The notes beneath the pieces were generated by a model, which did no database searches, was not told the origin of the DNA, and saw nothing but the letters and a program-made list of their open reading frames with translations. 64,000 nucleotides of DNA from Endomicrobiia bacterium (GTDB lineage Bacteria; Elusimicrobiota; Endomicrobiia; DTEH01), in the NCBI GenBank assembly GCA_039630545.1, contig JBCNUU010000002.1, forward strand, positions 127,994 to 191,993, written 5' to 3'. The position numbers were made by a program, and so were the translations under genes. Below, piece after piece: positions 34,727 through 52,936 of the stretch (position 1 is its first letter; every line of letters starts with the position of its first letter).

Positions 34727-35524
34727 ATGAAAAATTTATATTTACTTGTATTCACATATTCGCTTTTGCTTTCTTCTACAAATTATAAAATTATATCTCT
34801 TACTCCATCTATTACAGAAACTTTATATCTGTTAGGAGAAACTAAAAATGTAGTTGGTATCACATCTTTCTGCAAGCGAATCTCAAAGGAGCAAAGAATA
34901 GTAGGTACATATATTGAACCTAATATAGAAGAAATTATTAAAATTAACCCCGATATAGTGTTTATTTCAAAAGAAGGAACTAAAAAGGAAACAGTAGAAA
35001 AATTAAAAAAGTTTAATATCAATGTAGTTATATTTGAGCCAGTAAATAATTACAAAGAAATAAAATATCAGTTTCTGTATATTTCTAAGATTTTAAAAAA
35101 AGAAAAAACTGCCAAGGATATTTTAAGAAAATACGAAGCAAGTTTTAGACAAAAAACAAAAAAATATACTGGAAAGAAAATTTTGTGTATATTAAGTTTA
35201 AATCCTTTAATTGTAGCTTCTGATAAGAGCTATATAGGAGATATAATAAAAAATAGCGGAGGAATAAATCCTGTAATTTCTCAAATAAAATATCCTTCTA
35301 TTAGTTTAGAAGAACTATTAAAAATAAATCCTGAGATAATTATCATACCAGAGATGGGAATTAATAAGAAAGAAATCGAAAGATTTTTTATTAGATTTAA
35401 AAATTTAAACGCAGCAAAAAATAATAGAATTTATGTTTTACCTTCAGATGTTTTGTGTCAGCCAAATGTTAAAAATTATTTTCTTTCTGTACAAAAAATT
35501 TCAAAGATTCTTGAAGAAAAATGA
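34727..35524 (+). CDS. btuF: Cobalamin ABC transporter substrate-binding protein
   Basis: Motifs IISLTPSITETLYLLG, PNIEEII and AAKNNRIY; helical-backbone fold; riboswitch context. Confidence 0.85.
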   Translation: MKNLYLLVFTYSLLLSSTNYKIISLTPSITETLYLLGETKNVVGITSFCKRISKEQRIVGTYIEPNIEEIIKINPDIVFISKEGTKKETVEKLKKFNINVVIFEPVNNYKEIKYQFLYISKILKKEKTAKDILRKYEASFRQKTKKYTGKKILCILSLNPLIVASDKSYIGDIIKNSGGINPVISQIKYPSISLEELLKINPEIIIIPEMGINKKEIERFFIRFKNLNAAKNNRIYVLPSDVLCQPNVKNYFLSVQKISKILEEK

Positions 35525-36504
35525 AGAAATTTTTGTGGATCTATGTGATTTGCTTACTTTTTATTTTAAATATAGCCTTTTCATTGTTCTATAACTTAGA
35601 TCTTAATCTTTTGATAACTAATATTATCAATAAAAATTTTACTACGACTGAGTTTAAAATATTGACTCAAATAAGAATCCCCAGAGTTTTTGCTTCGTTT
35701 TTTGTAGGAGCAGCTTTAGCCATTACAGGATGTGTGCTTCAAAGTGTATTTTTAAATCCTTTATGCGAAGGATATACTTTAGGAATAGCTTCTTGCGCTG
35801 GGTTAGGTGTGATTGTTGGTAATATTTTAAATTTGCCTTTAAATAAATTTTTTAATTCTTTATTAGGAGTAATTTTTTCTTTAGGTGTTGTGTTTTTACT
35901 TGTTTTACTTTTTAAAAAGACAGTGGATATAAGTTTTATCCTTGCAGGAATTGTATTAAATTTTTTCTTTTCAGGAGTTATTATTCTTTTGACATTATTT
36001 TTTGATCCTTATGAAATTCATTATGTGCTTTTATGGTTATTAGGTGGTTTTTCTTCTGTGGATGCACATTATGTTTATATTTCATGTATTGTGATTGTGA
36101 TATGTATTGTAATCTTGATAAACATGGGTGATAAGTTTGATGTAATGATATTAGGAAAAGAAAAAGCAATTTCGTTAGGGATAAAGGAGCGAATAATTAA
36201 AAATATATCTATTCTTATTTGTGTAATAATTTTGTCTTTGTGTGTGTCATTATCAGGAATAATTTCGTTTGTTGGGGTTATTGTTCCTAATGTAGTTAAA
36301 ATGTTTACAGGTTTAAAACATAAAAATTGGTTTTTTATGTCATTAATTTTTGGGGGCTTTTTTGTCTCTCTTTGTGACAATTTAGCCAAAAATCTGCTTT
36401 ATCCTTTAGAGATACCTATAAGCGTGTTTACAGGAATAATAGGTAGTATTTTCTTTTTAGTTTTTATACTAAAAGGTAACCTGTATGGTAATATTAAAAG
36501 TTGA
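35521..36504 (+). CDS. btuC: Cobalamin ABC transporter permease (FecCD/BtuC)
   Basis: Motifs IRIPRV, LQSVFLNPL, WLLGG, AISLG and GIISFVGVIVP. Confidence 0.85.
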   Translation: MKKFLWIYVICLLFILNIAFSLFYNLDLNLLITNIINKNFTTTEFKILTQIRIPRVFASFFVGAALAITGCVLQSVFLNPLCEGYTLGIASCAGLGVIVGNILNLPLNKFFNSLLGVIFSLGVVFLLVLLFKKTVDISFILAGIVLNFFFSGVIILLTLFFDPYEIHYVLLWLLGGFSSVDAHYVYISCIVIVICIVILINMGDKFDVMILGKEKAISLGIKERIIKNISILICVIILSLCVSLSGIISFVGVIVPNVVKMFTGLKHKNWFFMSLIFGGFFVSLCDNLAKNLLYPLEIPISVFTGIIGSIFFLVFILKGNLYGNIKS

Positions 36505-37255
36505 GGAATTAGTTAGTGGTTATCAGGATATAGATGTAATAAAAAAAATCTCTTTTTCAATTTCTACTGGAGAATTTGTAGGAATAATAGGTCCTAATGC
36601 ATCAGGAAAGTCTACTTTGCTTAAGACAATTGCAGGAGTGGTAAAAATAAAAAGTGGTAGGGTCTTAATTAATGATAAAGATATAATGGATTATCACCAT
36701 AAAGAGTTAGCAAAGACAGTTGGATTAAGTACCAATATTACAGATTACTCTTTAAATTTTAAAGTAAGAGATTTTATACTTCTAGCCAGATATCCATGGA
36801 ATTTTTCAGAGATTAACTATGAAGAGCTCTATGAAGAGTTTGAATTAAAATCAATTTTAAAAAAAACTTTAAAAGAACTTTCTTCAGGAGAACTTCAAAG
36901 GGTGTTAATTGCTCAACTTGTAGCTCAAACACCTCAGATATTCCTTTTAGACGAGCCGGTTTCACATTTAGATGTAGGTCATCAGATAGGTATCTTGGAT
37001 AAATTAAAAAGAATAAATTTAGAAAAAAAAATTACGATTTTGGCTTCTTTCCATGAGTTAAACCTTGCTGTGGAATACTGCGATAGGTTGATATTGCTAT
37101 TTAATGGAGAAATTAGAAAAATAGGAACACCTAAAGAAGTAATGGATTACAGAATATTAGAAGAGGTGTATAATACAAAATTGATAGTAAAAACAAACCC
37201 AATTTCTGAAAAACCATATGTAATTCCTGTACCGATGATGTGGAATAACTTTTAA
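36485..37255 (+). CDS. btuD: Cobalamin ABC transporter ATPase
   Basis: Motifs GPNASGKSTLL, LSSGELQRV and LLDEP. Confidence 0.85.
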   Translation: MVILKVEELVSGYQDIDVIKKISFSISTGEFVGIIGPNASGKSTLLKTIAGVVKIKSGRVLINDKDIMDYHHKELAKTVGLSTNITDYSLNFKVRDFILLARYPWNFSEINYEELYEEFELKSILKKTLKELSSGELQRVLIAQLVAQTPQIFLLDEPVSHLDVGHQIGILDKLKRINLEKKITILASFHELNLAVEYCDRLILLFNGEIRKIGTPKEVMDYRILEEVYNTKLIVKTNPISEKPYVIPVPMMWNNF

Positions 37256-37272
37256 TTTTAAGGAATTAGTTT

Positions 37273-37812
37273 ATGGAAAAAAAATTAACACACCTTTATA
37301 CAGGTGATGGAAAAGGTAAAACCACTGCTTCTTTAGGATTGCTTTTGCGTGCCTTAGGTCATGGATGGAAAGTTTGTTTTGTAACTTTTCAAAAAGATCC
37401 TCAAAAATATGGCTATGGAGAATTCAAAGTTTTAAAAAAATTAAAAAATGTTAAAATATACAATTTTGCAAAAGTATGTCCTTATTTCACTAAAAAATAT
37501 GATATTGAAAAACTAAAACTGGAGATATCTAACTCTGTTAAGTTTATTAAGACTGATATTTTTAGAAAAAATTATGATTTAGTGATAATAGATGAAATTC
37601 TTGTTTGTGTAAGAGAAAAACTGTTAGATCTTAATGATATTAAGGACTTAATTAAAAATAAACCATTATCTACAGAACTCGTATTAACTGGCCAAGCTAA
37701 TAAAACGATTATAGACAAACTTAGAGATTGTGTAGATTATATTTCTTATGTAAAAAAACTGAAACATCCATATGATAAAGGAATTAAAAGAAGAAAAGGT
37801 ATAGAGTACTAA
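37273..37812 (+). CDS. cobO: Cob(I)alamin adenosyltransferase (CobO/BtuR)
   Basis: Motifs YTGDGKGKTTA, IIDEI, ELVLTG and KHPYDKG...GIEY. Confidence 0.93.
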   Translation: MEKKLTHLYTGDGKGKTTASLGLLLRALGHGWKVCFVTFQKDPQKYGYGEFKVLKKLKNVKIYNFAKVCPYFTKKYDIEKLKLEISNSVKFIKTDIFRKNYDLVIIDEILVCVREKLLDLNDIKDLIKNKPLSTELVLTGQANKTIIDKLRDCVDYISYVKKLKHPYDKGIKRRKGIEY

Positions 37813-37814
37813 CT

Positions 37815-38318
37815 ATGAAAAAAAGAATTTTAATTGTTGGTGGAATAAAAAGTGGAAAATCTGAATTTGCTTTGTCTTTTTTTAAGAATAAAAAAGCATA
37901 TTTTATCGCTACTGCACAACCTAAAGATTCTGAAATGAAAAAAAAGATTAATTTTCATAGAAAAAGAAGACCTAAAAACTTTCTAACTATAGAAGAACCT
38001 ATTAAGATAGTAAACAAAATAAAAAATTTTAAGAAAAACTCTGCAATACTTATTGACTGTGTTAATATTTGGATAGCTAATATGTTAAATAAGTATAGTG
38101 AAAATGAGATTTTAACTGAAGTAAAAAGCTTATGTGAGTGCTTAAAAAAATTTAAGTTAACTGTGTTAGTATCCAATGAAGTAGGAATGAGTTTAGTCGC
38201 TGTAAATAGATTGGGAAGAAAATTTCAAGAGTTATTAGGAAAAGTTAATCAGATTTTGTCTGATTGGGCAACTGATGTATATTTTTTAATAACAGGCATT
38301 CCTGTTAAAATAAAATGA
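37815..38318 (+). CDS. cobU: Adenosylcobinamide kinase / cobinamide-phosphate guanylyltransferase
   Basis: Motifs GGIKSGKSEFA, FIATA...D.EM...I..H...RP, LIDC and VSNEVG. Confidence 0.93.
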   Translation: MKKRILIVGGIKSGKSEFALSFFKNKKAYFIATAQPKDSEMKKKINFHRKRRPKNFLTIEEPIKIVNKIKNFKKNSAILIDCVNIWIANMLNKYSENEILTEVKSLCECLKKFKLTVLVSNEVGMSLVAVNRLGRKFQELLGKVNQILSDWATDVYFLITGIPVKIK

Positions 38319-39040
38319 GAAAAAATAAAAAATACGCTGCTTGTTGTTTTAGCGGAGGAAAAGATTCTACTTTAGCTTTATGGTATGCAATTAAATCATG
38401 TTATGATGTTAGATATCTTATAAATTTTGCATCCCTTAAATTTCGAAGAAGTTCATTTCATGGAGTACCCTGTGAACTTATAAATTTACAGGCTAAGCTC
38501 ATTGGTATTCCTCTGCTTCAGTATTTTGTCGAATCTGACAATGATTCCTATGAGAAAACATTTAACGAGATGCTTAAGAAATTAAAATCTTTGAAAATAA
38601 AGTATTTTATATGTGGTGATATATATTTAGAAGAACATCCTAACTGGATAAAAAAACAATGTAAAAAGTACAATTTAAAGTTAGTTGAACCTCTATGGAA
38701 AAAAAAACCAGAAGACATTTTAGAAGAATTTATTGAGAGTGGTTTTAAAGCTAAAGTTGTAAGTGTGAATGCTAAAGTTTTACCTAAAAATTTTGTAGGC
38801 GAAGATTTGAATTATGAATTTATTAAAAAACTTCAAAAATACAGAGTTTGTTTATGTGGAGAAAATGGCGAATATCATACTTTTGTGTATGATGGTCCCA
38901 TTTTTACTCATAAAATAGAAATTTTAGAGACAGAAATTGTGTACAAAAAAACTTTTTGGTCTGCCTGGTTTTTAAACATTAAAAAATATGCTTTAAAAAG
39001 TAAAAATTATGACGAAAGAAAAAATATCATACATAATTAA
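38315..39040 (+). CDS. Dph6/DUF71-family PP-loop ATP-dependent amide ligase
   Basis: Motifs FSGGKDS, GDIYLEEH, EPLW and CGENGEYHTFVYDGPIF. Confidence 0.9.
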   Translation: MRKNKKYAACCFSGGKDSTLALWYAIKSCYDVRYLINFASLKFRRSSFHGVPCELINLQAKLIGIPLLQYFVESDNDSYEKTFNEMLKKLKSLKIKYFICGDIYLEEHPNWIKKQCKKYNLKLVEPLWKKKPEDILEEFIESGFKAKVVSVNAKVLPKNFVGEDLNYEFIKKLQKYRVCLCGENGEYHTFVYDGPIFTHKIEILETEIVYKKTFWSAWFLNIKKYALKSKNYDERKNIIHN

Positions 39041-40097
39041 TTCTATATCTTTACCGGATTACTCTTTAATAAACAAAACCCAAAAATTACTGGATAATCT
39101 AACTAAACCTAAAAATTCTTTAGGTGATCTGGAAGAAATGGCAAAAAAAATAGCAGCAATTACAAATAATGTGGCACCGAAAATCAAAAAAAAGTATTTA
39201 TTTGTGTTAGCTGCTGACCACGGAGTAGCAGAAGAAAATGTTTCTGCATATCCGCAAGAGGTTACTTTTCAAATGGTTTTAAATTTTATTAAAAAAGGCG
39301 CAGCTATTAATGTTTTTACTGAACATACTGATACAAATATTTTTATAGTAGATATGGGTGTAAAAGGTGATTTTTCTTACTTAGAAAAAGAAGAAATTTT
39401 TGTTGATAAAAAAATAAATCCTGGAACAAAAAATTTCTTAAAAGAACCAGCTATGAGTAAAGATGAAGCAGAAAATGCCATATTATGTGGGATAGAGTTA
39501 GTTGAAAAAGTTTTAGATTTACATGATCCTGAAAATGGTGAAATTTTGTTGGTTGGAATTGGTGATATGGGTATAGGAAATACTACAACAGCTTCAGCTA
39601 TTACTGCTTTAATAACTAAAACAGAGGTTGAAAAAATAGTAGGTAGAGGAACTGGTGTGGATGATTTTAGATATAAAAACAAAATTGAAGTAATTAAAAA
39701 AGTCTTAAATAGATATGAATTTAACTTAAATGATGCGGTAGATATTCTTTCAAAAATAGGAGGATATGAAATTGCAGGAATGGTTGGTATAATTCTTGCT
39801 TGTGCCAGATATAAAATTCCTCTGGTTTTGGATGGATTTATTACAACTTCCGCAGCATTAGTTGCTTTATGTATGAGTGAGAAAATAAAAGAATATTTAT
39901 TCGCAGGACATCTTTCCAGAGAACCTGGTCATAGAATACAACTAGAATTTTTAGGTTTGAAACCTATTTTGAATCTTAATATGGCTTTAGGAGAAGGCAC
40001 GGGTGCTTGTTTAGCTATGGATATTTTAGAGCTTAGTTGTAAAATTTTACATGAAATGTCAACATTTGATGAAGCCAGAGTTTCAAGACAATTATGA
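39009..40097 (+). CDS. cobT: Nicotinate-nucleotide--dimethylbenzimidazole phosphoribosyltransferase
   Basis: Motifs LTKPKNSLGDLE, AADHGV, VSAYPQEVT, MGIGNTT and LGEGTGA. Confidence 0.96.
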   Translation: MTKEKISYIINSISLPDYSLINKTQKLLDNLTKPKNSLGDLEEMAKKIAAITNNVAPKIKKKYLFVLAADHGVAEENVSAYPQEVTFQMVLNFIKKGAAINVFTEHTDTNIFIVDMGVKGDFSYLEKEEIFVDKKINPGTKNFLKEPAMSKDEAENAILCGIELVEKVLDLHDPENGEILLVGIGDMGIGNTTTASAITALITKTEVEKIVGRGTGVDDFRYKNKIEVIKKVLNRYEFNLNDAVDILSKIGGYEIAGMVGIILACARYKIPLVLDGFITTSAALVALCMSEKIKEYLFAGHLSREPGHRIQLEFLGLKPILNLNMALGEGTGACLAMDILELSCKILHEMSTFDEARVSRQL

Positions 40098-40834
40098 AAA
40101 AAGTTTTGGATTTGTTTTTAAATACAATAAGTTTTTTGACTATAATTCCTATAAAAAGCAAAAAATTAGAGCATTATGGTTATTTGCTTTATATATTTTT
40201 CCCAGCAGTTGGATTAATCATAGGACTTCTATGTATAGGAATTTTAAAATTACTTGAAGAGTTTCTAAATTCAAAAGAGCTAGTAGTATTTTTTTTATTA
40301 TTTTTTTATATTGTCTTAGCAGATTTTTTTCATCTGGATGGATTTGCAGATACAATCGATGCTCTTTATGGATTTATCTTAAACAAGGAACCAAAAAAAA
40401 TCTTAAAAGATCCTCACATAGGTGCAATGGCTGTAGTTTATTTAGTGATGATTTTGTTGTATAAATTTTTTATTCTAAAACACATTAAAAATTTAGAGAC
40501 GGCAATATTGATTTCTTCTGTTATTAGTAGATGGAGTATGAGTGTAGCGGGTTTTTATGGAGTAGCAATGGAAGATTCTTTTGTTGGGAAAAGTTTTATA
40601 TATAGAGACTTAAAAGTACTCATCTTTAGTTTAGTTTCTGCATTTTTTTTATGTTTTATTTTTTTTGCTAATTCCATCTTTTTGTTGTTTATGTTTTTTT
40701 GTTCTTATTTGATAACATTCCTTGTTGTAAAATTCTTTAACCATAAATTCAGTGGTATTAATGGGGATATAATAGGATTTTGTAGTGAAGTGGTAGAGAT
40801 TTTAATTTTGTTGATGTTTTTTATAGGAGATTAA
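40094..40834 (+). CDS. cobS: Cobalamin synthase
   Basis: Motifs FLTIIP, FFPAVG, HLDGFADTID, KDPHIGA, SRW and GINGDIIG. Confidence 0.93.
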   Translation: MKKVLDLFLNTISFLTIIPIKSKKLEHYGYLLYIFFPAVGLIIGLLCIGILKLLEEFLNSKELVVFFLLFFYIVLADFFHLDGFADTIDALYGFILNKEPKKILKDPHIGAMAVVYLVMILLYKFFILKHIKNLETAILISSVISRWSMSVAGFYGVAMEDSFVGKSFIYRDLKVLIFSLVSAFFLCFIFFANSIFLLFMFFCSYLITFLVVKFFNHKFSGINGDIIGFCSEVVEILILLMFFIGD

Positions 40835-40850
40835 AGTTATGAAAATAGAG

Positions 40851-40964
40851 TTGAAATTATAAAAAAGACCGGTAGAAGAAAGTGGAGGCAAGTAGCTGGT
40901 AGTAAAAAATTATAAAAAATCCACTTTATCTACCGGTCTACTGTTTTTATATTATTAATTTCAA
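40851..40964. repeat. Long imperfect inverted repeat between cobS and btuB
   Basis: AGACCGGTAGAAGAAAGTGGA (40866-40886) pairs with TCCACTTTATCTACCGGTCT (40920-40939); outer arms TTGAAATTA/TAATTTCAA. Confidence 0.8.
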
Positions 40965-41014
40965 AATTTCAATTTTTAAAAAGATAATATAATTAGCGCG
41001 GGAGGGAACTTATT

Positions 41015-42898
41015 ATGAAAAAAATTTTGAAGTATCAAAATGTGTTAATGTATTATATTAACATACTTTTATTTTCATCTCTAACTTTCTGTAAAGAGGA
41101 AATTTTTATATCTGTTATAAAAGAAGGTATAAAAGAACAATTTATACCTTCTAATGCAATAATCATTACACAGAAAGATATTGAAAAAACATCTGCAAAA
41201 AATCTTGGAGAATTGTTAGATATGTTGACTGTATATGATTTATCTCACTATAGTGGTTTAGGAAGCGAGAAATCTTTGAGATTAAGAAATTCTACATCAA
41301 ACCAAGTTTTAGTTTTAATAAATGGTATACCAATAAGTGGACCAGCAAAAGGAAGTTTCAATTTGTCTCTTATTCCTGTGGAAGTTATAGAAAAAATTGA
41401 AATTTTAAGCGGAAGCTCATCTGGCCTATATGGAGCTAATGCTGTTGCTGGAGTTATAAATATAATTACTAAAACTTCATCTAAGATACATCCTGAGGTT
41501 TATTCTTGTTTTTCGTATGGAAGTTTTAATACTTATGGTACAACAGCTGAGTTTGATTATGTTAAAGATGCATATGGTATAAAGATTCTAGCTTCAGGCA
41601 TTCATTCAGATGGTTGGAGAGAAAACTCAAAATATGATAGTATTTCTGGGTATGGAAAGTTTTCAAAACAGACTCTTTATGGTAAAGTTGATTTTGAAAT
41701 TTTAACAAAAGATTCAAAGTCAGGAATTCCTGGGATAAGTCCTTTACCTATGGAACAATGGGACGGAGAAAAAGAAAAGCAGGCTTCAACTCCTTATGCT
41801 TTAGAATATGATAATTTTAGTTTGTTTTCTTTGAACTTTAATAATAAACTTATAACTTCAAAGTTAAGTTATGACATTCGAAAGTTAATATATGACAACT
41901 CAAAGGATCCTTTATGGCCTGAGAAAACTGATTCTAACTTAAATACTATAAATTTCTTAAATGAAATTGCTTTGCCATATAAAATTTATGTTTCTTTAAA
42001 CTACACTTATACTTTATTAAATCAGCAGTATCCATTAAATTCAAATCATAATTTTAAAAAAGATGTTTCAAATTTAAGTTTAGGATTAAAGAAAGAATTA
42101 AATTTTGAAAGTTTTAACTTTATACCGATATTTAGGTGGGACTCTAATTCTATATTTGGTAACAAAGTTTCACCACAACTTATATTTGTGTATGGACTTA
42201 AAAATTTAAAGTTTACCTTAACAGCAGGAACTTCCTGGCGTGCTCCTACTTTTCTGGATTTATATTGGCCGGACCAAATCTGGGCTAAAGGAAATCCTGA
42301 TTTAAAACCAGAAGATTCTTATTCTTTAGATTTTGCTTTTGAATTCAAACCTGAGAAGTTCAGAGTATCTATCAATCCATTCTATAGATATATAAGAAAT
42401 CAGATAAGGTGGTATCCAGAGAATCCTCAAGATATGTTTTCTGCCTGGATACCTTCTAATGTGGACGAAACAGTAGCTCAAGGAGTGGAAATAAACTCAG
42501 AATTTTCGGTAAGGAATATTTTTATAAATAAAGTTTCGGTTTTGTTGTGTGACAATAGAATAAAGAAAAAAGGAGAAGAAGATAAAGGTTGGCAAAAGCA
42601 GGCATATTCTCCTTTAGTCTCTGCGGTTTATAATTTTGAAGTTTTACTTCCTTATAGCTTTAAACTCGCAAATGTTATAAAGTATGTAGATTCTCAATAT
42701 TCAAGAGATTCAGAGTCAGGTACCAAACTTAAAAGCTTTATTTTATGGGACATAAAATTTTCAAAAAATATTTTTAATTTTTTAGATTTATACTTACAAG
42801 CTAAAGATGTTTTAGACCAGAAAGGAGTAAACAGAGAAGCTTATCCTCAACCTGGAAGAAGTTATGAGTGTGGATTTTGTTTAAATGTTAAATTTTGA
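41015..42898 (+). CDS. btuB: TonB-dependent receptor, probably the B12 transporter
   Basis: Plug motifs VLVLINGIP and IEKIEILSG...LYGANAVAGVINIIT; barrel motifs RAPTFLDLY and GNPDLKPE; terminal Phe; GGAGG SD; B12 operon context. Confidence 0.85.
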   Translation: MKKILKYQNVLMYYINILLFSSLTFCKEEIFISVIKEGIKEQFIPSNAIIITQKDIEKTSAKNLGELLDMLTVYDLSHYSGLGSEKSLRLRNSTSNQVLVLINGIPISGPAKGSFNLSLIPVEVIEKIEILSGSSSGLYGANAVAGVINIITKTSSKIHPEVYSCFSYGSFNTYGTTAEFDYVKDAYGIKILASGIHSDGWRENSKYDSISGYGKFSKQTLYGKVDFEILTKDSKSGIPGISPLPMEQWDGEKEKQASTPYALEYDNFSLFSLNFNNKLITSKLSYDIRKLIYDNSKDPLWPEKTDSNLNTINFLNEIALPYKIYVSLNYTYTLLNQQYPLNSNHNFKKDVSNLSLGLKKELNFESFNFIPIFRWDSNSIFGNKVSPQLIFVYGLKNLKFTLTAGTSWRAPTFLDLYWPDQIWAKGNPDLKPEDSYSLDFAFEFKPEKFRVSINPFYRYIRNQIRWYPENPQDMFSAWIPSNVDETVAQGVEINSEFSVRNIFINKVSVLLCDNRIKKKGEEDKGWQKQAYSPLVSAVYNFEVLLPYSFKLANVIKYVDSQYSRDSESGTKLKSFILWDIKFSKNIFNFLDLYLQAKDVLDQKGVNREAYPQPGRSYECGFCLNVKF

Positions 42899-42973: not shown

Positions 42974-45900
42974 ATGGGAAAATTTTTTAAAAAAAAACCT
43001 GTATTGGTATATTTAGTTTGTGTTTTTATTAAAACGTATGGGTTTAGTTTAAACTGGACAGAGAATACAAAGCAGCATTTTGAAGATGGTTTTTTTTATA
43101 GATCTACTGTTACTGCAGATGGAAAACTAAAAGTAAAACAATGGGATGATTGGTGGAACACTGCCTGGCCCCAAAGGATTCCGATAGAAATAAATAATTT
43201 AAATAATCCAGAAGAACTATTGGATTATCAGATATGGTTTATTTTTAACTCATCTGCTTTAGTAAGTGCAGGTAAATTAGACTCTACTGGTTCTTCTATT
43301 CGTATAACAGCCTCAGATGGAAAAACACTTCTTCCTTTCTGGGTTGAAAGTTGGAACATTGTGTCCTCTACCGGGTCAAAAATATGGGTAAGGGTTCCTA
43401 GAATTCCTGCAGACTCTAAAACCTATATTTATATGTATATTAGAAATACTTCTACTAATTCTGTGTCTAATAGAGATGCTGTTTTTGACCTATATGAGGA
43501 TTGGGAATCAGGCAGAATAAGATCTCGGACTTTCTGGTCTGAAACTGGTTGGATTTTGGGCGGAAATGCTAATTTTGAAATTCATACATCAACAGATTTG
43601 ATATACAACTTTAAAACTCAATCAAATGAGAACTTCAATGTATTTGAAGGACACTATGCTGTGCGTTCAGGACTGATTACGCATTCTCAAAATTTATTTC
43701 TTCAAACAATTTTAGATTTAAATTATCCAGCTAGAATTGAATTTTACTGGGCTTGTTTTTCTGAAGGCAGCAATTATGACTATTTAAGTTTTTATATTGG
43801 TGCAGTAGAGCAGGGAAGAATTCAAGGTGAGGCAGGATGGACTTTTGCTGCATTTTATCTTCCATCAGGAATAAATAATCTAAGGTGGGAATACAAAAAA
43901 GATCCTTCAGGAACGACACACTATGATAGAGGATTTTTAGATAAAATCGTTGTAAGAAAATATAACTCTTTATTTGACTCACAAATTCAGCAAAGAGTAA
44001 CACTGCAATCCATAGAAGAGTATTCTCCTTATTATAGATATGCTGAATATTACTCTGAAGTTTTTGACACAAAAGGAGAAAATACATTGGTAGTTTTTGC
44101 TTCCTGGACAGAAGTTTTAAATGGGCAGACTGTTAAAATTTATGCAAGAAGTAGCGATGAGTATTTTACAATTTTAAGCACATATCCTCGATTTACAGTT
44201 ACTGAACGGACTAATATTTTTAATCCTGCAGGGATACTCCCAGCTGGGAGATATTTACAGTATAAAGTAGAATTTTATACAAATGGTACAACCACATCTG
44301 AGGTGTCAGACATAAATTTCACATATCTACCTTTACCTTTAAGAGCTTATGAGTTTAACGGAGTAGCTTTGTCTTCAACTTCAATAAAGTGGAGCTGGGT
44401 AAATAGAGCCACTTATTACATAGATGGTTATATTATCTATTCTTCAACACGACAATATAATAAGGACGGAAGATATCTTGTAGTAACTTCTACTTCTGAA
44501 GGAATTTTGGCTCGTCTGCCTTCTTCTGCTACTTACTGGATAGAGGAAAATCTACAACCTAACACACAATATGGAAGGTATGTGGTAGCCTACACTACCA
44601 CAATTGTGGCTTTTGGAGGTAATGCTTCAAGAAGTATTACTGGTAGAGATGAACCAAGATATGTTTACACCTTAGCATTGTCTCCGAGTTGTAAACCAGA
44701 AAGATATGAAATGACAACCATACCTCCTTATTACAGATTTGTTGAAATTTCGACTGGTGTATGGTATAACACAAAAGAATTTTCGTTTACTTCTGCTTTT
44801 TCTACAGGTCCAGGTAGGGTAGCGTACTACCGGTATGTGTTTACAACAACTTCTACCTGGAATGATTCTGAAGCCTATGTATGGTATCCAAATTCTTCTA
44901 CATATATTACAGGCGGTGGAGAACAGATCTTAGAACGCCCAATTTTGGAACTCTTTGCTACAAAAAATTCAGATAATTGGTATTTTCAGGTAAAAAGCTA
45001 CAATGGTGACAATTTAGAATCAGGTTATCAAATTTTTGGTCCTTTTTGGTTCAATGGATGTCCTGCACAGATTACAGATCTTGTAGCAGTTAGAGGTAAA
45101 TTTGAAGAGGGTAAAATAGTTTTAAACTGGACAGCACCTACAGATGATGCAGAGGTAGGCAATTTAATAGGTGCAAAATATATTATCAAATATCGTATAG
45201 CAGGAATAATAGATACGGATGAGAAATTTGATTCTATTGTGCCAGTAGTTACTTCCACTGGAATGGTTCAGGGAATAATAGAAATATCTACTACTACACA
45301 AGCAGGTAATAAAGAAACCTTTGTAGTAAGCGGACTTGTACCGGGTTTGACTTATTGGTTTGCTATCCGTGTAGTAGATAATAATAACAATAAATCATTA
45401 GTATCTACAAATATTAGTAGTATTTATTATTTAAGAGCAAGAAGTTCAAAAGTTTCTAAAATAGAGTTTGTAACACCTTCATACACATTTTATGCAGGTG
45501 ACGTTTCTGCAAAAATAGAAGTAAGACTTTTAGATGAAGATGGTGATGAGATTAAAACAAAATTTGGTGGAGAATGTGATTTGTTAACAACTTCTTCTAA
45601 AGGTAGGTTTTCTTTAGATGGGGTTAACTTTGGAATAAGTAAACTTAATATTTTACCAAATACTTCTCGCGGTGTATTTTATTATATGGATGAACAATCC
45701 GGCAATCCAGAGATTACAGTGGATGAAGTAGCTGCTATTTATTACTGGAATGGTTCCCAGGGGTGGATGAGTTCATCTCAAATTCATGAAATTCTTCCTG
45801 GTAAAGCGGTAACATTTAGAGTTATTCCTCAGGATGGGAATTATAACTGTCAAATAGTAGTGGACAAACCAGTTTATATTGAAGCTGTAGATAAATTAGG

Positions 45901-48145
45901 CAATCGTGCTGTAGATTTTGAGGGAGTAGTGGTTGTCACAACTTCTTTTAATGGGTTGTTTATTTTTCCTTACAGTGTAACATTCACATTAGCAGACCAA
46001 GGACGAGTAAATGCTGTTTTAAGAAACTACTACTATGCAGGTGCAAGCAGTATAACTGTTTTTGAAGTGGTAAATCAAGACTACAAAAAAATTATTTTTA
46101 GTGATTTTTATAACGGATATCTAATAGGCTCTAAAGGTATTTTAAAAGCAACCTCTGAAGGAGGTATAAGATGGTTTACTAAAATTTACAGAGATGAAAC
46201 AGCAAAAGCTCTAAATGGTATAGCTGTACATGAAAATCTTGGAGTTTTATGTGGGAAAAACGGACTTGTGATTATTTCTACGAACTCTTTTTTAACCTAT
46301 GATGAAAAAAATGTTTCCTCTGTAGATTTAAATGATGTAGTTTTTGTTGACAGTACAACCTTGGTGGTATGTGGATCAGGAGGTGCAATTTTAAAATCAA
46401 CAGATTGTGGTAAAAGCTTTCATACTATTTCTTCACCGATAAATGTTTCTTTAAATTCTATAGTTTTTGTTTCAAGTACAACAGGTTTTATTTGTGGTGA
46501 CAATGGTAAACTAATTAAAACTACAAATAAAGCAATAAGTTTTGAAGAAATTTCTACGCCGGTTTCTAATAATCTTTACGGAATGAAATTTTTAGATGAA
46601 CAGACAGGTTTTATATGTGGTAGTAGTTCAATTTTACTTAAAACTGAAGATGGTGCTAGAAGTTTTATCAGTGTAACTGTTTCTACAGAGAATATTAGTT
46701 TATATGGTGTAGATTTTCTTACTTCTCAAATTGGTGTGGTATGTGGTTCATCTGGTAAAGTGTTTATTACCACCAACTCAGCAACGAGTTTCTATGACAT
46801 TTCTCCTAAGGAAGCACAAAATGAAATTTTTTATTCTATTAAAATGCTAGACTTAAATAAAATAATAGTTGTGGGAAGCAATGGAAGTGTTTACTTTACA
46901 GCTGACAGAGGTATAAATTGGAGAAAAATTGTAATGCATGGATTTTCTCCTCAAGAGTATTTGTGGAATGCTACTGTTATTTCGTCCATTCAACCACGTG
47001 CTTCAAAGGTGATTCAAGGAAGAGCAAATCAAACAATAGCTACTTTAGGTATTAGATACGCTTATCCATCAGCAGTTACTACGAAAATTAATAAGTTAAC
47101 AGTAAGGAAATTGGGTACTCTTCCTGATGAATATATTACTTCTATAAAATTAGGTGAACTTGGAACAGCAAGTTTTATAAACGGAGTTGCTGAGATATTG
47201 CTTCCATCTCAGCCTATAATAAGATATACTACATCCTATTTTGATGTTCAAATAGACCTTTCACCAGAGGCTCCGTTAGACACGACTTTTGCTTTAATGT
47301 TTGATTTTGGATGTATAAATGTTGCTCAAGGAATACAGTTTGGTAGAAATAATCTGCCGTATATAACCTATAAGGATACCTCTACACTGGAGTATTTAGT
47401 AGTAGTTCCTCCGGTAGTAAACGTCTACATAATAGACATAGATACTTCTACATATCTAAGAACATATACTGGTTTTCAAAAAACAAAAATACTGGAACAA
47501 GGAGACAGCGGGGTAATAATAAAAATCGGTTTAACAACTGACAGGTCTATTTCTCCATTTAGAAAACTTCGTGTAAATCTTTCAGGTGATAATTTAAGAG
47601 ATGAGGATATAAAAGTAGTAAAACTTTATGTGGATTATCCTTTTATTGAAGAAAATATGGTTTCTTCTTCAACATTTAAAGGAGGCATAGCTTTTCTTGA
47701 TTTTAAGAAAGAGCAAATTATTTCTGATAAAGCTACTAGTTATTTCTATATTACAGCAGAAATTTCTCCTGACGCTTCTTATTCCAGAGATCTTACAGAA
47801 GTAAACTTTTTATTTAAAATAGATATATCAACTTCTTATTTCTTGTTAGATCATGAAGGAGTCAATACGATCTCTTCTAGATTAACTTATTTACAAAAAG
47901 AGATAACCTCAACAAAAACCCGTATAGAAATTTCAAAAGATATTGTTTATGTAAGAATATTACCAGAAATAGCGGCAAGAATTCCTGAAAAAGTTTATCA
48001 ATCTGAAAGAGTGATTTTTTTACCTTTAGGAATTTCTGTGGGCAAACGTGGTTTAGGAGTTGCTTCTGCTGATTGGTCAAGGTTAAGAATAGATAAATCC
48101 ACACAAGCATCAGATAGTTATACTCGTTTTGATAGAAGTTCCTAG
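42974..48145 (+). CDS. Giant secreted protein, N-terminal part (DUF2341-like, FN3-like, BNR/YCF48-type propeller and Ig-like repeats); ends at an in-frame TAG
   Basis: Signal peptide; WWNTAW..RIPI...LPFWVESW...IWVRVP; LNWTAP...GLVPGLTYWFAIR; several L..V.F....G..CG..G....T repeats. Confidence 0.85.
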   Translation: MGKFFKKKPVLVYLVCVFIKTYGFSLNWTENTKQHFEDGFFYRSTVTADGKLKVKQWDDWWNTAWPQRIPIEINNLNNPEELLDYQIWFIFNSSALVSAGKLDSTGSSIRITASDGKTLLPFWVESWNIVSSTGSKIWVRVPRIPADSKTYIYMYIRNTSTNSVSNRDAVFDLYEDWESGRIRSRTFWSETGWILGGNANFEIHTSTDLIYNFKTQSNENFNVFEGHYAVRSGLITHSQNLFLQTILDLNYPARIEFYWACFSEGSNYDYLSFYIGAVEQGRIQGEAGWTFAAFYLPSGINNLRWEYKKDPSGTTHYDRGFLDKIVVRKYNSLFDSQIQQRVTLQSIEEYSPYYRYAEYYSEVFDTKGENTLVVFASWTEVLNGQTVKIYARSSDEYFTILSTYPRFTVTERTNIFNPAGILPAGRYLQYKVEFYTNGTTTSEVSDINFTYLPLPLRAYEFNGVALSSTSIKWSWVNRATYYIDGYIIYSSTRQYNKDGRYLVVTSTSEGILARLPSSATYWIEENLQPNTQYGRYVVAYTTTIVAFGGNASRSITGRDEPRYVYTLALSPSCKPERYEMTTIPPYYRFVEISTGVWYNTKEFSFTSAFSTGPGRVAYYRYVFTTTSTWNDSEAYVWYPNSSTYITGGGEQILERPILELFATKNSDNWYFQVKSYNGDNLESGYQIFGPFWFNGCPAQITDLVAVRGKFEEGKIVLNWTAPTDDAEVGNLIGAKYIIKYRIAGIIDTDEKFDSIVPVVTSTGMVQGIIEISTTTQAGNKETFVVSGLVPGLTYWFAIRVVDNNNNKSLVSTNISSIYYLRARSSKVSKIEFVTPSYTFYAGDVSAKIEVRLLDEDGDEIKTKFGGECDLLTTSSKGRFSLDGVNFGISKLNILPNTSRGVFYYMDEQSGNPEITVDEVAAIYYWNGSQGWMSSSQIHEILPGKAVTFRVIPQDGNYNCQIVVDKPVYIEAVDKLGNRAVDFEGVVVVTTSFNGLFIFPYSVTFTLADQGRVNAVLRNYYYAGASSITVFEVVNQDYKKIIFSDFYNGYLIGSKGILKATSEGGIRWFTKIYRDETAKALNGIAVHENLGVLCGKNGLVIISTNSFLTYDEKNVSSVDLNDVVFVDSTTLVVCGSGGAILKSTDCGKSFHTISSPINVSLNSIVFVSSTTGFICGDNGKLIKTTNKAISFEEISTPVSNNLYGMKFLDEQTGFICGSSSILLKTEDGARSFISVTVSTENISLYGVDFLTSQIGVVCGSSGKVFITTNSATSFYDISPKEAQNEIFYSIKMLDLNKIIVVGSNGSVYFTADRGINWRKIVMHGFSPQEYLWNATVISSIQPRASKVIQGRANQTIATLGIRYAYPSAVTTKINKLTVRKLGTLPDEYITSIKLGELGTASFINGVAEILLPSQPIIRYTTSYFDVQIDLSPEAPLDTTFALMFDFGCINVAQGIQFGRNNLPYITYKDTSTLEYLVVVPPVVNVYIIDIDTSTYLRTYTGFQKTKILEQGDSGVIIKIGLTTDRSISPFRKLRVNLSGDNLRDEDIKVVKLYVDYPFIEENMVSSSTFKGGIAFLDFKKEQIISDKATSYFYITAEISPDASYSRDLTEVNFLFKIDISTSYFLLDHEGVNTISSRLTYLQKEITSTKTRIEISKDIVYVRILPEIAARIPEKVYQSERVIFLPLGISVGKRGLGVASADWSRLRIDKSTQASDSYTRFDRSS

Positions 48146-48148
48146 ACT

Positions 48149-50128
48149 TTGGTTGAAGTCTGGAGGGATGTGAATGGAGACGGGTTATTAAACTTACAGG
48201 ATGTGAAATTAGGTGAAAGTAGGTTTGAAAATAACATAGCTTTAGTGATTTTTGATCAACCAGAGAAAATAGATAAACAAGAATATCTATCTCAATATGC
48301 CACATACTTTATTTGCTGTTATATACCTAAAAATGCCCAACCAGATGAAAAACTCAGGTTGTATATTTCTACCGGCACATACTTTACATTAGGTGGTGTA
48401 GATGTTGTAGAAAGCGGAAATTTTCCTTTAGTTTCTCCTCAGCTTACAATAGCTGACTGGCCAGATGAAGTTTCTTTTGAAGCGGTTTCTTTAGCACCAG
48501 CTGAAGCTGCACTGTATGAAACAGATGTAGCTTTGGCAAAGTTTGATCTTTTAGCATTTTGTGATGCAACTTTAGAAGAACTAAATATTACTCATGAAGG
48601 AACTTCAGAGCCTGGTAATACTGTAAAATTGGTTAAAGTATATTTAGATGATGGTGACTTAAGGTTTGATAAAGATAAAGATATAATAGTTTCAACAGGT
48701 GTATTTGATTCTTCCGGAAAATGTAAATTAAAATTTTTTAATCCTCAAAATAGACTTAAATATCCTCCAGTTCTTATTCTAGACGAAAATGTAAGAATAT
48801 TTGTGACTTTTGATTTTAGTGAAGATGCGATTCCAGATAAAACGATAGGTTTCGGAATAGATCCTACCGGTTTAAGCTATAATTTACCTAATAGACAAAA
48901 ACCATTTGGATATTTTTCTACTTCAAAAATAACGCTTCTGGATAAAAGAACACCAACAAAACCTAAAATATTTCCTTATGTCCCACTTAATAGAGGTATA
49001 GATACAGGTAGAGAAATAGAAAATCTTGTTTATTACACTCCTTACAATAACGAGATAAAGTTTAACTGGTATTCAGAAGCTCCTTTTGGTGGTGGGATAA
49101 AATCTGGTTATGCGGGGATTGCTTTAAGAAAACCTAAACATCTCAGTGACATTCCTGATCTGGTAAATTTTATTCCTATAGGAGATGTTGGTGATTTTAC
49201 TCTCTCTGGATTAAATCTTGAACATAACAAAGTTTATTACTTATGGATAAAGGCAGAAAGTAATGCTGGATTTACGAGGTTAAATTATGTGACCCTTTTT
49301 ATAGACAATACTCCTGCTTCTGAACCTCAACCTCCTTTTTCCACTTTACCTTCAAATAATATTTTTTGGGTTAATACCAATTTAAAAGAAGATGATGAAA
49401 GCTTTCTAGAAAGTGTTGAAATAGAAGAAAGAGTTCATCAGGAGTATATTTGGAATAATGTAAAATCGGTAAAGCTCCCTGTGGAGGAGATAATTAAAAG
49501 TATATATATGAAAACAATACCTGTAAGAATAGAAAACGATAAAATCATTTTTTCTTCAAGAAGTATATTATCGGATGATGTGATAGTGGAGTATAATTTT
49601 GTTGTTACAGTTTCTACGCCTCAAAATTTTGAAGTAATAAACTTTAAAACATTATTTTCATTTTTGGGTTATAAACTTGAAAGTTATTCTATAAAACTTG
49701 AGAACCGTTTTTCTAATAAAGAAATTAATAAAGTATATTATTATCGTGCAAGAAGTAGAAATGTTGTAGGACTCTATTCTGACTTTTCAGAAGTTTCTAA
49801 AGCTATTTATCTTGGACTTCCTGACACTACGATTCTGGAACTTACAACTTTTCCAAATCCATGCGATGTAAGAAAAGATGTTTTAAAGATAAGTTATATT
49901 TTAACAGAAGATGCTGAAGTTAATATAAAAATTTTTGATATTTTAGGAGGGTTGGTTTATCAAAAGAGTTATCCTTTAGGTTCTTCATATACATCACGAG
50001 GAACACATTTTATTGAGATTCCGGAAAGCAAAAATTTTGCTGCAGGAATGTATATAATGTATTTACAAACAAAAGATAAAAATGGTAACATTTCAAATAA
50101 AAAGTGGAAAATAGGAATAATTAGATGA
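48149..50128 (+). CDS. C-terminal part of the same protein, ending in a T9SS type A-like sorting domain
   Basis: Same frame as 42974 and one codon after the TAG; no signal peptide; ends FPNP...ISYIL...VNIKIFDILGGLV...GMYIMYL...KKWKIGIIR. Confidence 0.8.
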   Translation: MVEVWRDVNGDGLLNLQDVKLGESRFENNIALVIFDQPEKIDKQEYLSQYATYFICCYIPKNAQPDEKLRLYISTGTYFTLGGVDVVESGNFPLVSPQLTIADWPDEVSFEAVSLAPAEAALYETDVALAKFDLLAFCDATLEELNITHEGTSEPGNTVKLVKVYLDDGDLRFDKDKDIIVSTGVFDSSGKCKLKFFNPQNRLKYPPVLILDENVRIFVTFDFSEDAIPDKTIGFGIDPTGLSYNLPNRQKPFGYFSTSKITLLDKRTPTKPKIFPYVPLNRGIDTGREIENLVYYTPYNNEIKFNWYSEAPFGGGIKSGYAGIALRKPKHLSDIPDLVNFIPIGDVGDFTLSGLNLEHNKVYYLWIKAESNAGFTRLNYVTLFIDNTPASEPQPPFSTLPSNNIFWVNTNLKEDDESFLESVEIEERVHQEYIWNNVKSVKLPVEEIIKSIYMKTIPVRIENDKIIFSSRSILSDDVIVEYNFVVTVSTPQNFEVINFKTLFSFLGYKLESYSIKLENRFSNKEINKVYYYRARSRNVVGLYSDFSEVSKAIYLGLPDTTILELTTFPNPCDVRKDVLKISYILTEDAEVNIKIFDILGGLVYQKSYPLGSSYTSRGTHFIEIPESKNFAAGMYIMYLQTKDKNGNISNKKWKIGIIR

Positions 50129-51237
50129 AAAAATACATTTTTAGTTTTTTATTTTTAATAGTTTCAGTGAAATTTTTAAATTCTACATCTAGTCAATCTA
50201 TGCCTGTTTTGTCTTATCCTATAGGTGCAAAGATAAATGCTATGGGAAACACTTATAATTCATTGGGTTTTGATGTATTTAGTTCTTTGTTAAATCCGGC
50301 TGTAGTTGGAGTACTTGATAAGAAAAATATCGGGTTGACTACTGCTTTACTTTATGAGTCTACTATACTTAGTTTTTTTGGGTATGTTTTACCTACTTTA
50401 GATTTTGGTAATTTTTCTTTTAATACTGTTTATCTTAATAGTTTCGCTGCTAAACAAACAGATGAATTTAATAGATTTACTGGGAAGGAGTTTTCTTATA
50501 GTAACTTAATTACAAGTATTGGTTGGGGTAAAGAATTTGTAATCAGGAAAGTTTATATTGGAGGCAATATAAAATTTTTATTAGAAACGATTGACGGTTA
50601 TAGCCGTAGTTTCTTGACTTCCGGTTTAGGAGCAATATATAGATTTTCTTCAGCTGTAGACTTGGCTGGAAATATAAACAATGTTTTAAATTTAAAACTA
50701 ACCTCTACGGAAGATGATTTGCCATTGGGAATAAATTTAGGAATTGGTATAAAACCGTTTGAAAAATTAAATTTAGGATTTGATTTTGGTAAGAATATAT
50801 TCAAGGGTAAATTTTCAGATAGATACTCATTTGGTATAAATTGGTCTCCTTTAAAGACATTTTCTATTCGTGCAGGAAAAAACGAGCTTGAAAGTTCCTT
50901 TGGCTTTGGTGTAAATTTTAAAAACATGAGTGTTGATTATGCGCTGGTTTTACAAGAATATCTGGGGTTTTCTCACAGAGTTTCTTTAGATTTTAAATTT
51001 GGGAAAACATTGGATGAAATATGGGCAGAAAGGATGAAGACACTTCCTGCGACAGAAGAGTTAGAAATTATAGAAGCAAAACTTCAAACTGAAGAAGAAA
51101 AAAGAAGATACTTTCAGAGTTTATTTAATGAAGCTGTTAAAAATTATACAACTGGCAATTACAAACAAGCCCTGAATAATTTTAATAAAGCAAAAGAAAT
51201 ACAACCAGAAGCTACTGATATAGATATATATAGATAG
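50125..51237 (+). CDS. PorV/PorQ-like outer-membrane beta-barrel fused to TPRs, N-terminal part (frameshifted)
   Basis: Signal peptide, IGAKINAMG...NPA, alternating beta strands, DYAL...LGFSHRVSLDFKFG, then the first TPR; ATGA overlap with the upstream gene. Confidence 0.78.
   Translation: MKKYIFSFLFLIVSVKFLNSTSSQSMPVLSYPIGAKINAMGNTYNSLGFDVFSSLLNPAVVGVLDKKNIGLTTALLYESTILSFFGYVLPTLDFGNFSFNTVYLNSFAAKQTDEFNRFTGKEFSYSNLITSIGWGKEFVIRKVYIGGNIKFLLETIDGYSRSFLTSGLGAIYRFSSAVDLAGNINNVLNLKLTSTEDDLPLGINLGIGIKPFEKLNLGFDFGKNIFKGKFSDRYSFGINWSPLKTFSIRAGKNELESSFGFGVNFKNMSVDYALVLQEYLGFSHRVSLDFKFGKTLDEIWAERMKTLPATEELEIIEAKLQTEEEKRRYFQSLFNEAVKNYTTGNYKQALNNFNKAKEIQPEATDIDIYR
51224..51232 (+). repeat. (AT)4A microsatellite at the frameshift site
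   Basis: gATATATATAg; adding one AT unit joins the two frames. Confidence 0.7.
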
Positions 51238-51718
51238 AATAAATCTTGTTACCTCCTTATATTCTTCAATTACACCAACAGATAAAGTATCTAGTCTTTT
51301 AGTAAGGGGCATAAGCTATTACATAAACGGGGATAATGTTTCAGCAGTAAAAGTAATAAATTATGCTTTAAGTTTATCTCCTGATGATATTCAAATTTCA
51401 AGGTTGTTAACAAAGATAGAAGAAAAAACAGGTGTTAGAGCAGAAAAAATAGAAAACTTAGCAGGTACTACTATAGTAGACAAATTACATAGTGAATCAT
51501 TAATTGCGTTTAGAAAACGGGATTATGCCACAGCCATAAAACTCTGTGAAGAGATTTTATTGTTAGAACCCGAAGATGTCTTAGCTTACAAGAGATTAGG
51601 TTCTGCATTTTATGCTCTTGGTCAAAAAGATAAAGCTTTACAGATGTGGCAACAAGCTCTTCAGTTAGATCCTAAAGATGAGAAATTAAAAAATATGATA
51701 GAAAATATTAAAAAATAA
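51233..51718 (+). CDS. C-terminal TPR part of the PorV-like gene (frame open from 51224)
   Basis: DRINLVTSLY...LLVRGISYYING...ALSLSPDD runs without a stop into the 51404 ORF (AYKRLGSAFYALG...ALQLDP). Confidence 0.78.
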   Translation, partial: DRINLVTSLYSSITPTDKVSSLLVRGISYYINGDNVSAVKVINYALSLSPDDIQISRLLTKIEEKTGVRAEKIENLAGTTIVDKLHSESLIAFRKRDYATAIKLCEEILLLEPEDVLAYKRLGSAFYALGQKDKALQMWQQALQLDPKDEKLKNMIENIKK

Positions 51719-52862: not shown

Positions 52863-52936
52863 GGGCGTGTAGTTCAGATGGCCAGAACGCACGGTTCACA
52901 TCCGTGAGGTCAGAGGTTCAACTCCTCTCACGCCCA
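52863..52936 (+). tRNA. tRNA-Val (anticodon CAC); CCA not encoded
   Basis: Acceptor stem GGGCGTG/CACGCCC with discriminator A; anticodon arm CACGG-TTCACAT-CCGTG; T arm AGAGG-TTCAACT-CCTCT. Confidence 0.95.

Follow-up and report, generated by a model that had tools for sequence, protein, structure and literature searches.

A putative surface adhesin and its probable PorV-family carrier associated with a flagellum-free FliF-FliG/MotAB core in Elusimicrobiota

Type B cargo proteins of Bacteroidota are described as remaining on a dedicated carrier that is encoded next to them (PMC12618676). In the SprB-SprF system of Flavobacterium johnsoniae (PMC12618676, PMC12635249), SprF anchors SprB in this way, and its periplasmic C-terminal tail connects to the moving track (PMC12635249). 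Type IX transport is reported to need energy at the point where the carrier-substrate complex is released from SprA (PMC10994853). A 2024 paper states that type IX secretion genes are absent outside the Fibrobacteres-Chlorobi-Bacteroidetes (FCB) group (PMC11285876). Most free-living Elusimicrobiota are reported to carry motAB and fliG without flagella, a role called enigmatic (10.1101/2022.07.08.499144). Here we analyse a pair of adjacent genes in a 64,000-nucleotide stretch of contig JBCNUU010000002.1 (assembly GCA_039630545.1, positions 127,994 to 191,993 of the forward strand), referred to below as the window. The first gene encodes a large protein with a C-terminal domain (CTD) export tag, the cargo, and the second a PorV-family barrel with a tetratricopeptide repeat (TPR) tail. 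We favour, with reservations, the reading that the cargo is an adhesin of the cell surface, that the barrel is the carrier dedicated to it, and that together they make up the outer half of a rotary machine that has no flagellum, both genes being broken in this copy. This role is suggested because most relatives that have the barrel keep it beside flagellar rotor and stator genes.

The closest parallel is likely SprB-SprF, with an adhesin and carrier tied here to a flagellum-free flagellar-type motor and physical coupling still hypothetical. In both systems a large multidomain cargo gene precedes the gene of its own outer membrane carrier, the carrier has a C-terminal tail that is periplasmic in SprF and predicted to be so here, and cleavage of the CTD is not needed. 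Major differences can also be observed. SprB-SprF combines a type B cargo with a PorP/SprF carrier, whereas the present pair has a type A-like CTD and a PorV-family carrier. The tail is a TPR array of 235 residues rather than a short twin-cysteine tail bonded to GldK. The GldJKN track and the GldLM motor were not found in the host; a FliF-FliG fusion and MotAB are linked instead.

With the type IX core (6h3i, 8gl6; PMC10994853), the host shares a SprA homologue, a PorV-fold barrel and a type A CTD. Unlike in the described systems, the host lies outside the FCB group, its SprA has 1,733 residues instead of 2,403, 17 PorV-like open reading frames (ORFs) take the place of one general shuttle, and GldKLMN and PorU were not found in searches that had no positive control. 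The linked FliG rotor and MotAB stator genes resemble the core of the flagellar motor (FliF MS-ring, FliG, MotA5B2), but FliF is shortened and fused to FliG, and the likely load is an outer membrane carrier, not a rod and filament. FlhA (PF00771), the sole flagellar export, rod, hook or filament gene searched for, has no match in the host genome, and four control genomes score over the cut-off. A barrel with 14 strands, a hatch and a presumed periplasmic helical TPR extension is also described for the FadL-like/UPF0164 proteins TP0548, TP0859 and TP0865 of Treponema pallidum (PMC8407342, PMC13749626). These were proposed as nutrient channels or export proteins, and the available text of the papers mentions no CTD cargo, SprA or motor partner for them. 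The first-pass annotation of the window had set the TPR tail against the tail-less PorV of Bacteroidota. The 235-residue tail is real but not unique, given the three T. pallidum proteins (PMC8407342).

Association with a FliF-FliG/MotAB cassette

An orthologue of the barrel is present in 17 of the 251 phylum genomes surveyed (E <= 6e-128; next best 2e-72). The same 17 genomes contain the cargo orthologue (E <= 3e-236; next 2e-58), which lies immediately before the barrel in 14 of them (in G014 with one small ORF between); contigs end in two others, and in G031 the cargo is found elsewhere. A FliF-FliG fusion of the cassette type occurs in 16 of the 17, 15 times at E <= 6e-99 and once, in G211, as a split gene. 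The exception, G002, is 88% complete and has no SprA match either. Outside the host genus (g1), FliF-FliG is immediately downstream of the barrel in all 11 genomes (with one small ORF between in G009), and MotA and two MotB genes stand beside it in 8 of these 11. The genes are most often arranged as kinase, regulator, cargo, barrel-TPR, FliF-FliG, MotA, MotB, MotB. The linked genes match YscJ_FliF_C (weakly), FliG_M, FliG_C, MotA_ExbB and OmpA-type MotB. The FliF part of the fusion has only about 130 periplasmic residues.

Across the phylum, the adjacency differs between long and short barrel frames. Among the matches listed, which comprise 133 barrel genes and 149 FliF-FliG rows (four matches are not included), FliF-FliG lies at most 4 kb downstream of 74 of the 119 barrels in frames of at least 480 residues, versus none of the 14 shorter ones. 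The pair had been annotated as a possible secretion-and-display system. That description is incomplete, as the pair belongs to a module with the FliF-FliG fusion and MotAB.

Related arrangements were observed elsewhere. A second operon of the host genome, G000 (G000:C12:54296-65569), contains a CTD mini-protein, a PorV-TPR protein, a FliF-FliG-TPR protein and two long proteins; its barrel-rotor pair recurs in most free-living families. A separate MotA/MotB pair is located near a 2,500-residue CTD protein (G000:C34:12028-13542). The distant layout of L088 (G082:C42:9000-28000) comprises a cargo of more than 3,200 residues, a CTD mini-protein, a barrel-TPR, a longer FliF-FliG, MotA and MotB.

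Architecture and decay of the putative cargo-carrier pair

The cargo gene is a single reading frame of 2,384 codons at positions 42974-50128 of the forward strand, on which all features of the pair lie, with an in-frame TAG inside. Intact orthologues have 2,219-2,397 residues. The intact cargo is predicted to be a non-catalytic surface protein, consisting of a signal peptide, a beta-sandwich head, a beta-propeller, a repeat stalk and the CTD. Residues 1-25 (42974-43048) were judged by eye to be a probable Sec signal peptide. A DUF2341 domain (residues 106-188; 43289-43537; Pfam E 6.2e-20) precedes a chain of predicted beta-sandwich domains of the FN3/Ig-like type (approximately residues 201-1030; 43574-46063; fn3 E 3.1e-6). 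The AlphaFold2 (AF2) model of residues 26-1030 is almost wholly beta (mean predicted local distance difference test score, pLDDT, 66.9), and Foldseek with the N-terminal 1,005 residues finds only generic FN3/Ig chains (TMq <=0.14). The YCF48/BNR-type beta-propeller follows at approximately residues 1035-1321 (46076-46936; PSII_BNR E 5.8e-25, three stretches), the start of this range being judged from the sequence. Four related repeats of about 150-170 residues each occupy residues 1333-1990 (46970-48943). A profile built from any one of them retrieves the remaining three (E 0.0095 to 6e-10), and the region is probably an Ig-like stalk. The propeller and DUF2341 matches aside, Pfam and NCBIfam yield no catalytic family above cut-off, which makes an adhesin the likeliest role of the cargo.

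The type A CTD-like export tag (49850-50128) was placed by its match to TIGR04183 and by the family alignment. The match itself covers 49850-50080 and scores 24.6 bits (cut-off 23, E 1.9e-5). No match to TIGR04131 (type B) is listed in the library scan of the window proteins, and the score of the cargo for CHU_C is 20.6 bits, under the cut-off of 27. Against the PDB, the CTD profile gives weak matches to FlgD (best, E 0.002) and to the PorU CTD. The frame of about 2,384 codons and the type A CTD reported in the first-pass annotation are thus both found, but the TAG, at codon 1724, interrupts the protein.

The TGA of the cargo overlaps the ATG of the barrel gene in an ATGA at 50125-50128. The barrel gene with its TPR tail (50125-51718) would encode 531 residues if intact. 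It matches PorV_fam (NF033709) with E 1e-15, as well as PorQ. The barrel domain (50194-51000), modelled with AF2 on the orthologue from L022 (mean pLDDT 79.4), has an N-terminal hatch and 14 predicted beta-strands. PorV is the top match of the model in Foldseek and VIA, with Z 28.4 and a root-mean-square deviation of 4.5 over 272 aligned residues for 6h3i_F. The sequence profile of the barrel, searched against the PDB, retrieves PorV (6h3i_F, E 4.7e-10) along with TPR proteins; FadL does not appear at E <= 0.001. Domain matches and AF2 define a helical TPR tail of about 235 residues (51001-51715), which we infer to be periplasmic because the even number of strands implies this in the standard barrel topology. 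Barrel-TPR-like clusters are commonest in Elusimicrobiota, and Zixiibacteriota and Eiseniibacteriota also have some. Scans for promoters and terminators at both ends scored no better than chance. The overlap and the PorV matches agree with the proposed coupling of the cargo to a PorV-like barrel with TPRs, but in this assembly the barrel gene is frameshifted.

The lesions of the window were compared with contigs from three public hot-spring runs (two samples, one study). The TAG at 48143-48145 splits the cargo into 1,723 and 659 residues. In the barrel gene, the (AT)n run at 51223-51232 has two bases fewer than in the public runs. This 2-nt frameshift near 51223 leaves a product of 370 residues without most of the TPR tail, and the TPR part continues in another frame to 51718. 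The public contigs read TGG at 48144 and keep both bases at 51223, so that neither lesion is present, and encode a barrel-TPR of 531 residues. An intact barrel-TPR protein of the same length (P0002) is identical to the two window pieces at 365/366 and 163/164 residues. All three public runs instead have a TA duplication at 43110-43112 that stops the cargo at 52 residues. Comparison with the orthologues shows that the window keeps its frame at 43110 and that codon 1724 usually encodes an amino acid. Two populations of the host species have lost the cargo by different routes, unless the lesions of the window are assembly errors. Read-through or recoding of the TAG was ruled out, as TAG terminates 127 of 1,036 long frames in the genome and the position is Trp in the public runs and the two closest orthologues.

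The cargo head shows dense minority alleles at 43498-43558 and 44073-44233 in runs X3 and X1. The rows shown hold 27 such bases in 21 codons, 15 of them non-synonymous and 6 synonymous. Positive selection on the head was considered and is not indicated, with a minority-allele ratio close to neutral.

Decay is not confined to the pair. The motor cassette of the host, at G000:C2:16520-20230, carries two frameshifts. Four of the seven module genes of this genome are broken, namely cargo, barrel, FliF-FliG and MotB1. Of 169 other orthologues no more than 7 are, and three of these 7 are artefacts at alignment ends (Poisson P 0.0002-0.0015, post hoc). G006 has two lesions in the cargo and others in the barrel and FliF-FliG, and none of 20 neighbours is broken. 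The cargo, barrel and FliF-FliG are also broken in G211, where the module genes alone were scored. G004 and G008 have none of the three orthologues, and no lesion was noticed in the stretches read of G003 and G001. In G005 (L031:347-2746), the barrel-TPR frame continues into a transketolase-like gene (799 residues), through a lost stop or an assembly error. Repeated inactivation of the module in g1 would fit a costly or phage-exposed surface structure. In Flavobacterium psychrophilum, reversible loss of gliding genes is described as a phage defence (PMC9804748). By analogy, one might guess at similar phage pressure on the g1 module.

Type IX secretion parts in the host and its phylum

The host, a hot-spring bacterium, belongs to the Elusimicrobiota, as the first-pass annotation had suspected when it placed it outside Bacteroidota. 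This follows from the barrel orthologues, the identity of pnp and the named protein matches; the class is probably Endomicrobiia. The pnp gene of the window is 65-79% identical to pnp of L035-L037 (Endomicrobia/Elusimicrobiota). The barrel alignment matched 10 loci in species genomes. The best six that are complete or nearly so (L035-L040) come from Endomicrobia, Endomicrobiia or Elusimicrobia/Elusimicrobiota, and L041 and L044 from Ignavibacteria. Named protein matches are labelled Endomicrobia bacterium.

In the host genome (95.5% complete), the SprA homologue is located at G000:C12:74846-80047. Its matches to TIGR04189 form three collinear stretches and stay below cut-off (best E 1e-12). 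A family profile was needed to find the relationship in the PDB, where SprA is its sole match (E 1e-24); a single-sequence phmmer search against the PDB gave none. In the SprA-like Atlas clusters, SprA_N is carried by 20-75% of members. The homologue was matched in 226 of the 251 phylum genomes. The system is not minimal, because a SprA homologue exists, and the earlier proposal of a minimal CTD/PorV system is abandoned. Downstream of the SprA-like gene (G000:C12:82233-87149) are an ExbB-like gene and genes for a 942-residue TPR protein and for a 485-residue protein, whose scanned part matches no Pfam family. It is possible that these are SprE-like or energising partners.

With profiles built from the genome's own hits, we counted 17 PorV-like ORFs (two of them contig-end fragments) and 31 CTD-ending ORFs among 1,528. 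TIGR04183 gives 27 matches in this genome, 22 of them above cut-off and the window cargo among these, and PorV_fam 15 matches in 14 genes, three above cut-off. Eleven of the 17 PorV-like ORFs directly follow a CTD-ending ORF (binomial P ~3e-15). The pairing is not due to chance, in agreement with the cognate cargo-barrel pairs that had been anticipated. Many of the PorV-like ORFs have no tail or another kind of tail. Their number and the 235-residue tail of the window barrel differ from a single general shuttle without a periplasmic domain, as PorV is. The pair also differs from a type B CTD with a PorP/SprF carrier, TIGR03519 (PorP/SprF) matching only another gene (C12:27420).

Other CTD and barrel genes are found in the host. 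A cluster at G000:C6:13119-26101 contains CTD cargoes, PorV-like barrels and a large TPR protein together with three genes that, judged by eye, resemble ExbB (one) and ExbD (two). It is a candidate export energiser that would replace GldLM. At G000:C1:34405-36435, after a 237-residue CTD protein, a PorV-like barrel has a 378-residue tail ending in an OmpA-like part, possibly a peptidoglycan-anchored carrier. An open frame of at least 6,718 residues ends in a CTD at G000:C34:121050-141206 and is cut by the contig end.

Among SprA, PorK/L/M/N and PorU, the components that the first-pass annotation had named, only the SprA homologue was recovered. GldK, GldL, GldM and GldN were not found in the host genome, in a search that had no positive-control genome such as a type IX-motor Bacteroidota. 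GldM was found in 0 of 121 phylum genomes, again with no positive control. Peptidase_C25, the catalytic part of PorU, has no match in the host genome, and no control gave a signal. All 19 matches to NF033707 (PorU) fall within model positions 876-1094, the C-terminal Ig/CTD end. With no match to the catalytic part, cleavage of the CTD appears unlikely.

These results bear on an alternative role of the motor. FliF-FliG/MotAB could serve export only and pull the loaded carrier out of SprA in place of GldLM-GldKN, the cargo being static afterwards. Carrier release is the step that requires energy (PMC10994853), the Gld proteins that would drive it were not detected within the limits given above, and every linkage datum is equally compatible with such a role. 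However, family f20 has SprA in 77 of its 79 genomes and family f4 in 48 of 70, and FliF-FliG matched only one genome in each. Export in the phylum would thus generally proceed without the rotor, since these families mostly keep SprA and almost never the rotor. The lack of rotor genes beside any of the short barrels among the matches listed also speaks against a motor for export, and we regard this role as rather unlikely.

The remaining features of the window concern its surroundings. A run of cobalamin uptake and salvage genes (btuF/C/D-like, cobA, cobU, Dph6-like ATPase, cobT, cobS and a btuB-like receptor) occupies 34727-42898, directly upstream of the cargo. An Rfam scan of the window found no cobalamin riboswitch, its sole match being a tRNA; the tRNA gene lies at 52863-52936 between lpxD and rpsO. 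At 28734-31184, before polA, an 816-residue coiled-coil protein has weak SMC-like matches only, and the preceding gene (253 residues) has no family match.

A possible ion-driven surface motor

Several observations weigh against a pair coupled to the motor. The pair and the motor cassette are unlinked in all five g1 genomes that have both halves, and in G000, G002, G003 and G006 the pair sits behind btuB. Among the matches listed, 45 of the 119 long barrels have no FliF-FliG beside them. MotA does not adjoin the rotor gene in G151 and G211. The distances of barrel and FliF-FliG show no correlation beyond shared ancestry (partial Mantel, partial r 0.03, p 0.46, 10 genomes), and the related genomes are non-independent samples. 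A peptidoglycan bushing was not identified. In 8 of 12 cassettes the second MotB has Asn at the plug-Asp position (G000:C2:16520-17236; L038, L039, L041, L084, L114, L115, L117); the other 4 have Asp. We take this site to be the usual plug Asp of MotB, and it would be unusual for one B chain of a stator to lack it. Another CTD gene of the host genome is broken as well, which may mean no more than that surface genes are prone to breakage. The PorV_fam score of the barrel is 58 bits, under the cut-off of 90, and fold alone ties PorV (Z 28.4) with FadL/TodX-type channels (Z 27.7). In the barrel-family alignment, the TPR tail lacks a Cys-X-Cys twin-cysteine motif of the SprF kind.

Part of this evidence would suit static display, in which the TPR tail of a dedicated pair attaches to SprA, to peptidoglycan or to a chaperone. 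In that case the motor genes would be co-regulated neighbours, or would sense surfaces together with the kinase and regulator next to them. The separation of pair and motor in g1 and the missing co-evolution signal beyond ancestry agree with this, as does the histidine kinase that accompanies the module. The 11 pairs among the 17 PorV-like ORFs, many of these tail-less or differently tailed, are likewise consistent with it. Static display leaves unexplained the co-occurrence in 16 of 17 genomes, the adjacency of rotor genes to long but not to short barrels among the matches listed, and the fact that two unlinked loci are damaged together in both G000 and G006. We judge it unlikely.

Given the tie in fold, the barrel could also be a TPR-tailed uptake channel of the FadL/TodX kind. 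The tail of the cargo, whose profile finds FlgD first in the PDB, would be FlgD-like and no export tag, and in g1 the pair could capture cobalamin with the btuB and salvage genes directly upstream. This is highly improbable. The profile of the barrel matches PorV and not FadL in the PDB, a SprA homologue is present, and CTD and barrel genes are paired genome-wide. Among the loci read, btuB stands beside the pair only in g1 genomes, and the window has no Rfam cobalamin riboswitch.

For an adhesin and carrier coupled to the motor, the following sequence of events can be envisaged. Judging from their N-termini, both proteins would be exported by Sec. The cargo would cross the SprA-type translocon, and its CTD would bind the loops of its own barrel, as the Bacteroidota structures and the gene pairing suggest. 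The CTD would stay bound, since no sortase was found, and the barrel would anchor the cargo as SprF does SprB. The periplasmic TPR tail might contact the FliF-FliG ring, directly or via an adaptor. Complex prediction with the TPR tail (barrel orthologue residues 279-523) and three copies of the FliF periplasmic part (21-152) gave scores of 0.25 and 0.17 against a mark of 0.32, with no controls, and weighs neither for nor against binding. Ion flow through MotA/MotB stators would turn the ring, and the adhesin would be rotated or pulled for movement on surfaces or their handling. A hot-spring member of the Elusimicrobia is reported to be enriched ~500-fold on cellulose particles (PMC7031533), which fits surface adhesion in the group and is not tied to the host genome.

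A literature search returned no paper on type IX secretion in Elusimicrobiota or on barrel-rotor coupling; subscription journals were mostly outside it, supplements were excluded, and tables of genome papers may list the genes. The available text of PMC12204202, PMC7031533 and PMC8542988 does not link type IX secretion to Elusimicrobiota. The pair described here is the cargo-carrier half, inactive in this copy, of a conserved module linked to motor genes, its physical coupling being hypothetical.

SprA, PorV-like carriers and CTD cargo occur almost phylum-wide in Elusimicrobiota, outside the FCB group. The apparent lack of the GldLM/GldKN energy chain makes one ask what drives the release of carriers in this phylum. 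For one class of carriers, the long-tailed ones, gene order, shared presence and joint decay all provide a link with a flagellum-free FliF-FliG/MotAB core. As a tentative suggestion, on balance somewhat doubtful, Elusimicrobiota may have rebuilt the gliding principle of Bacteroidota from other parts: SprA/PorV/CTD export without GldKLMN, an adhesin on a barrel, and a TPR arm driven by a rod-less FliF-FliG and MotAB. If true, flagellar and type IX parts would here be united in an ion-driven surface motor of a new kind. Such coupling is a testable answer to why flagellum-less Elusimicrobiota retain motAB and fliG and bears on the reuse of flagellar motor parts; it would account for these orphan genes.

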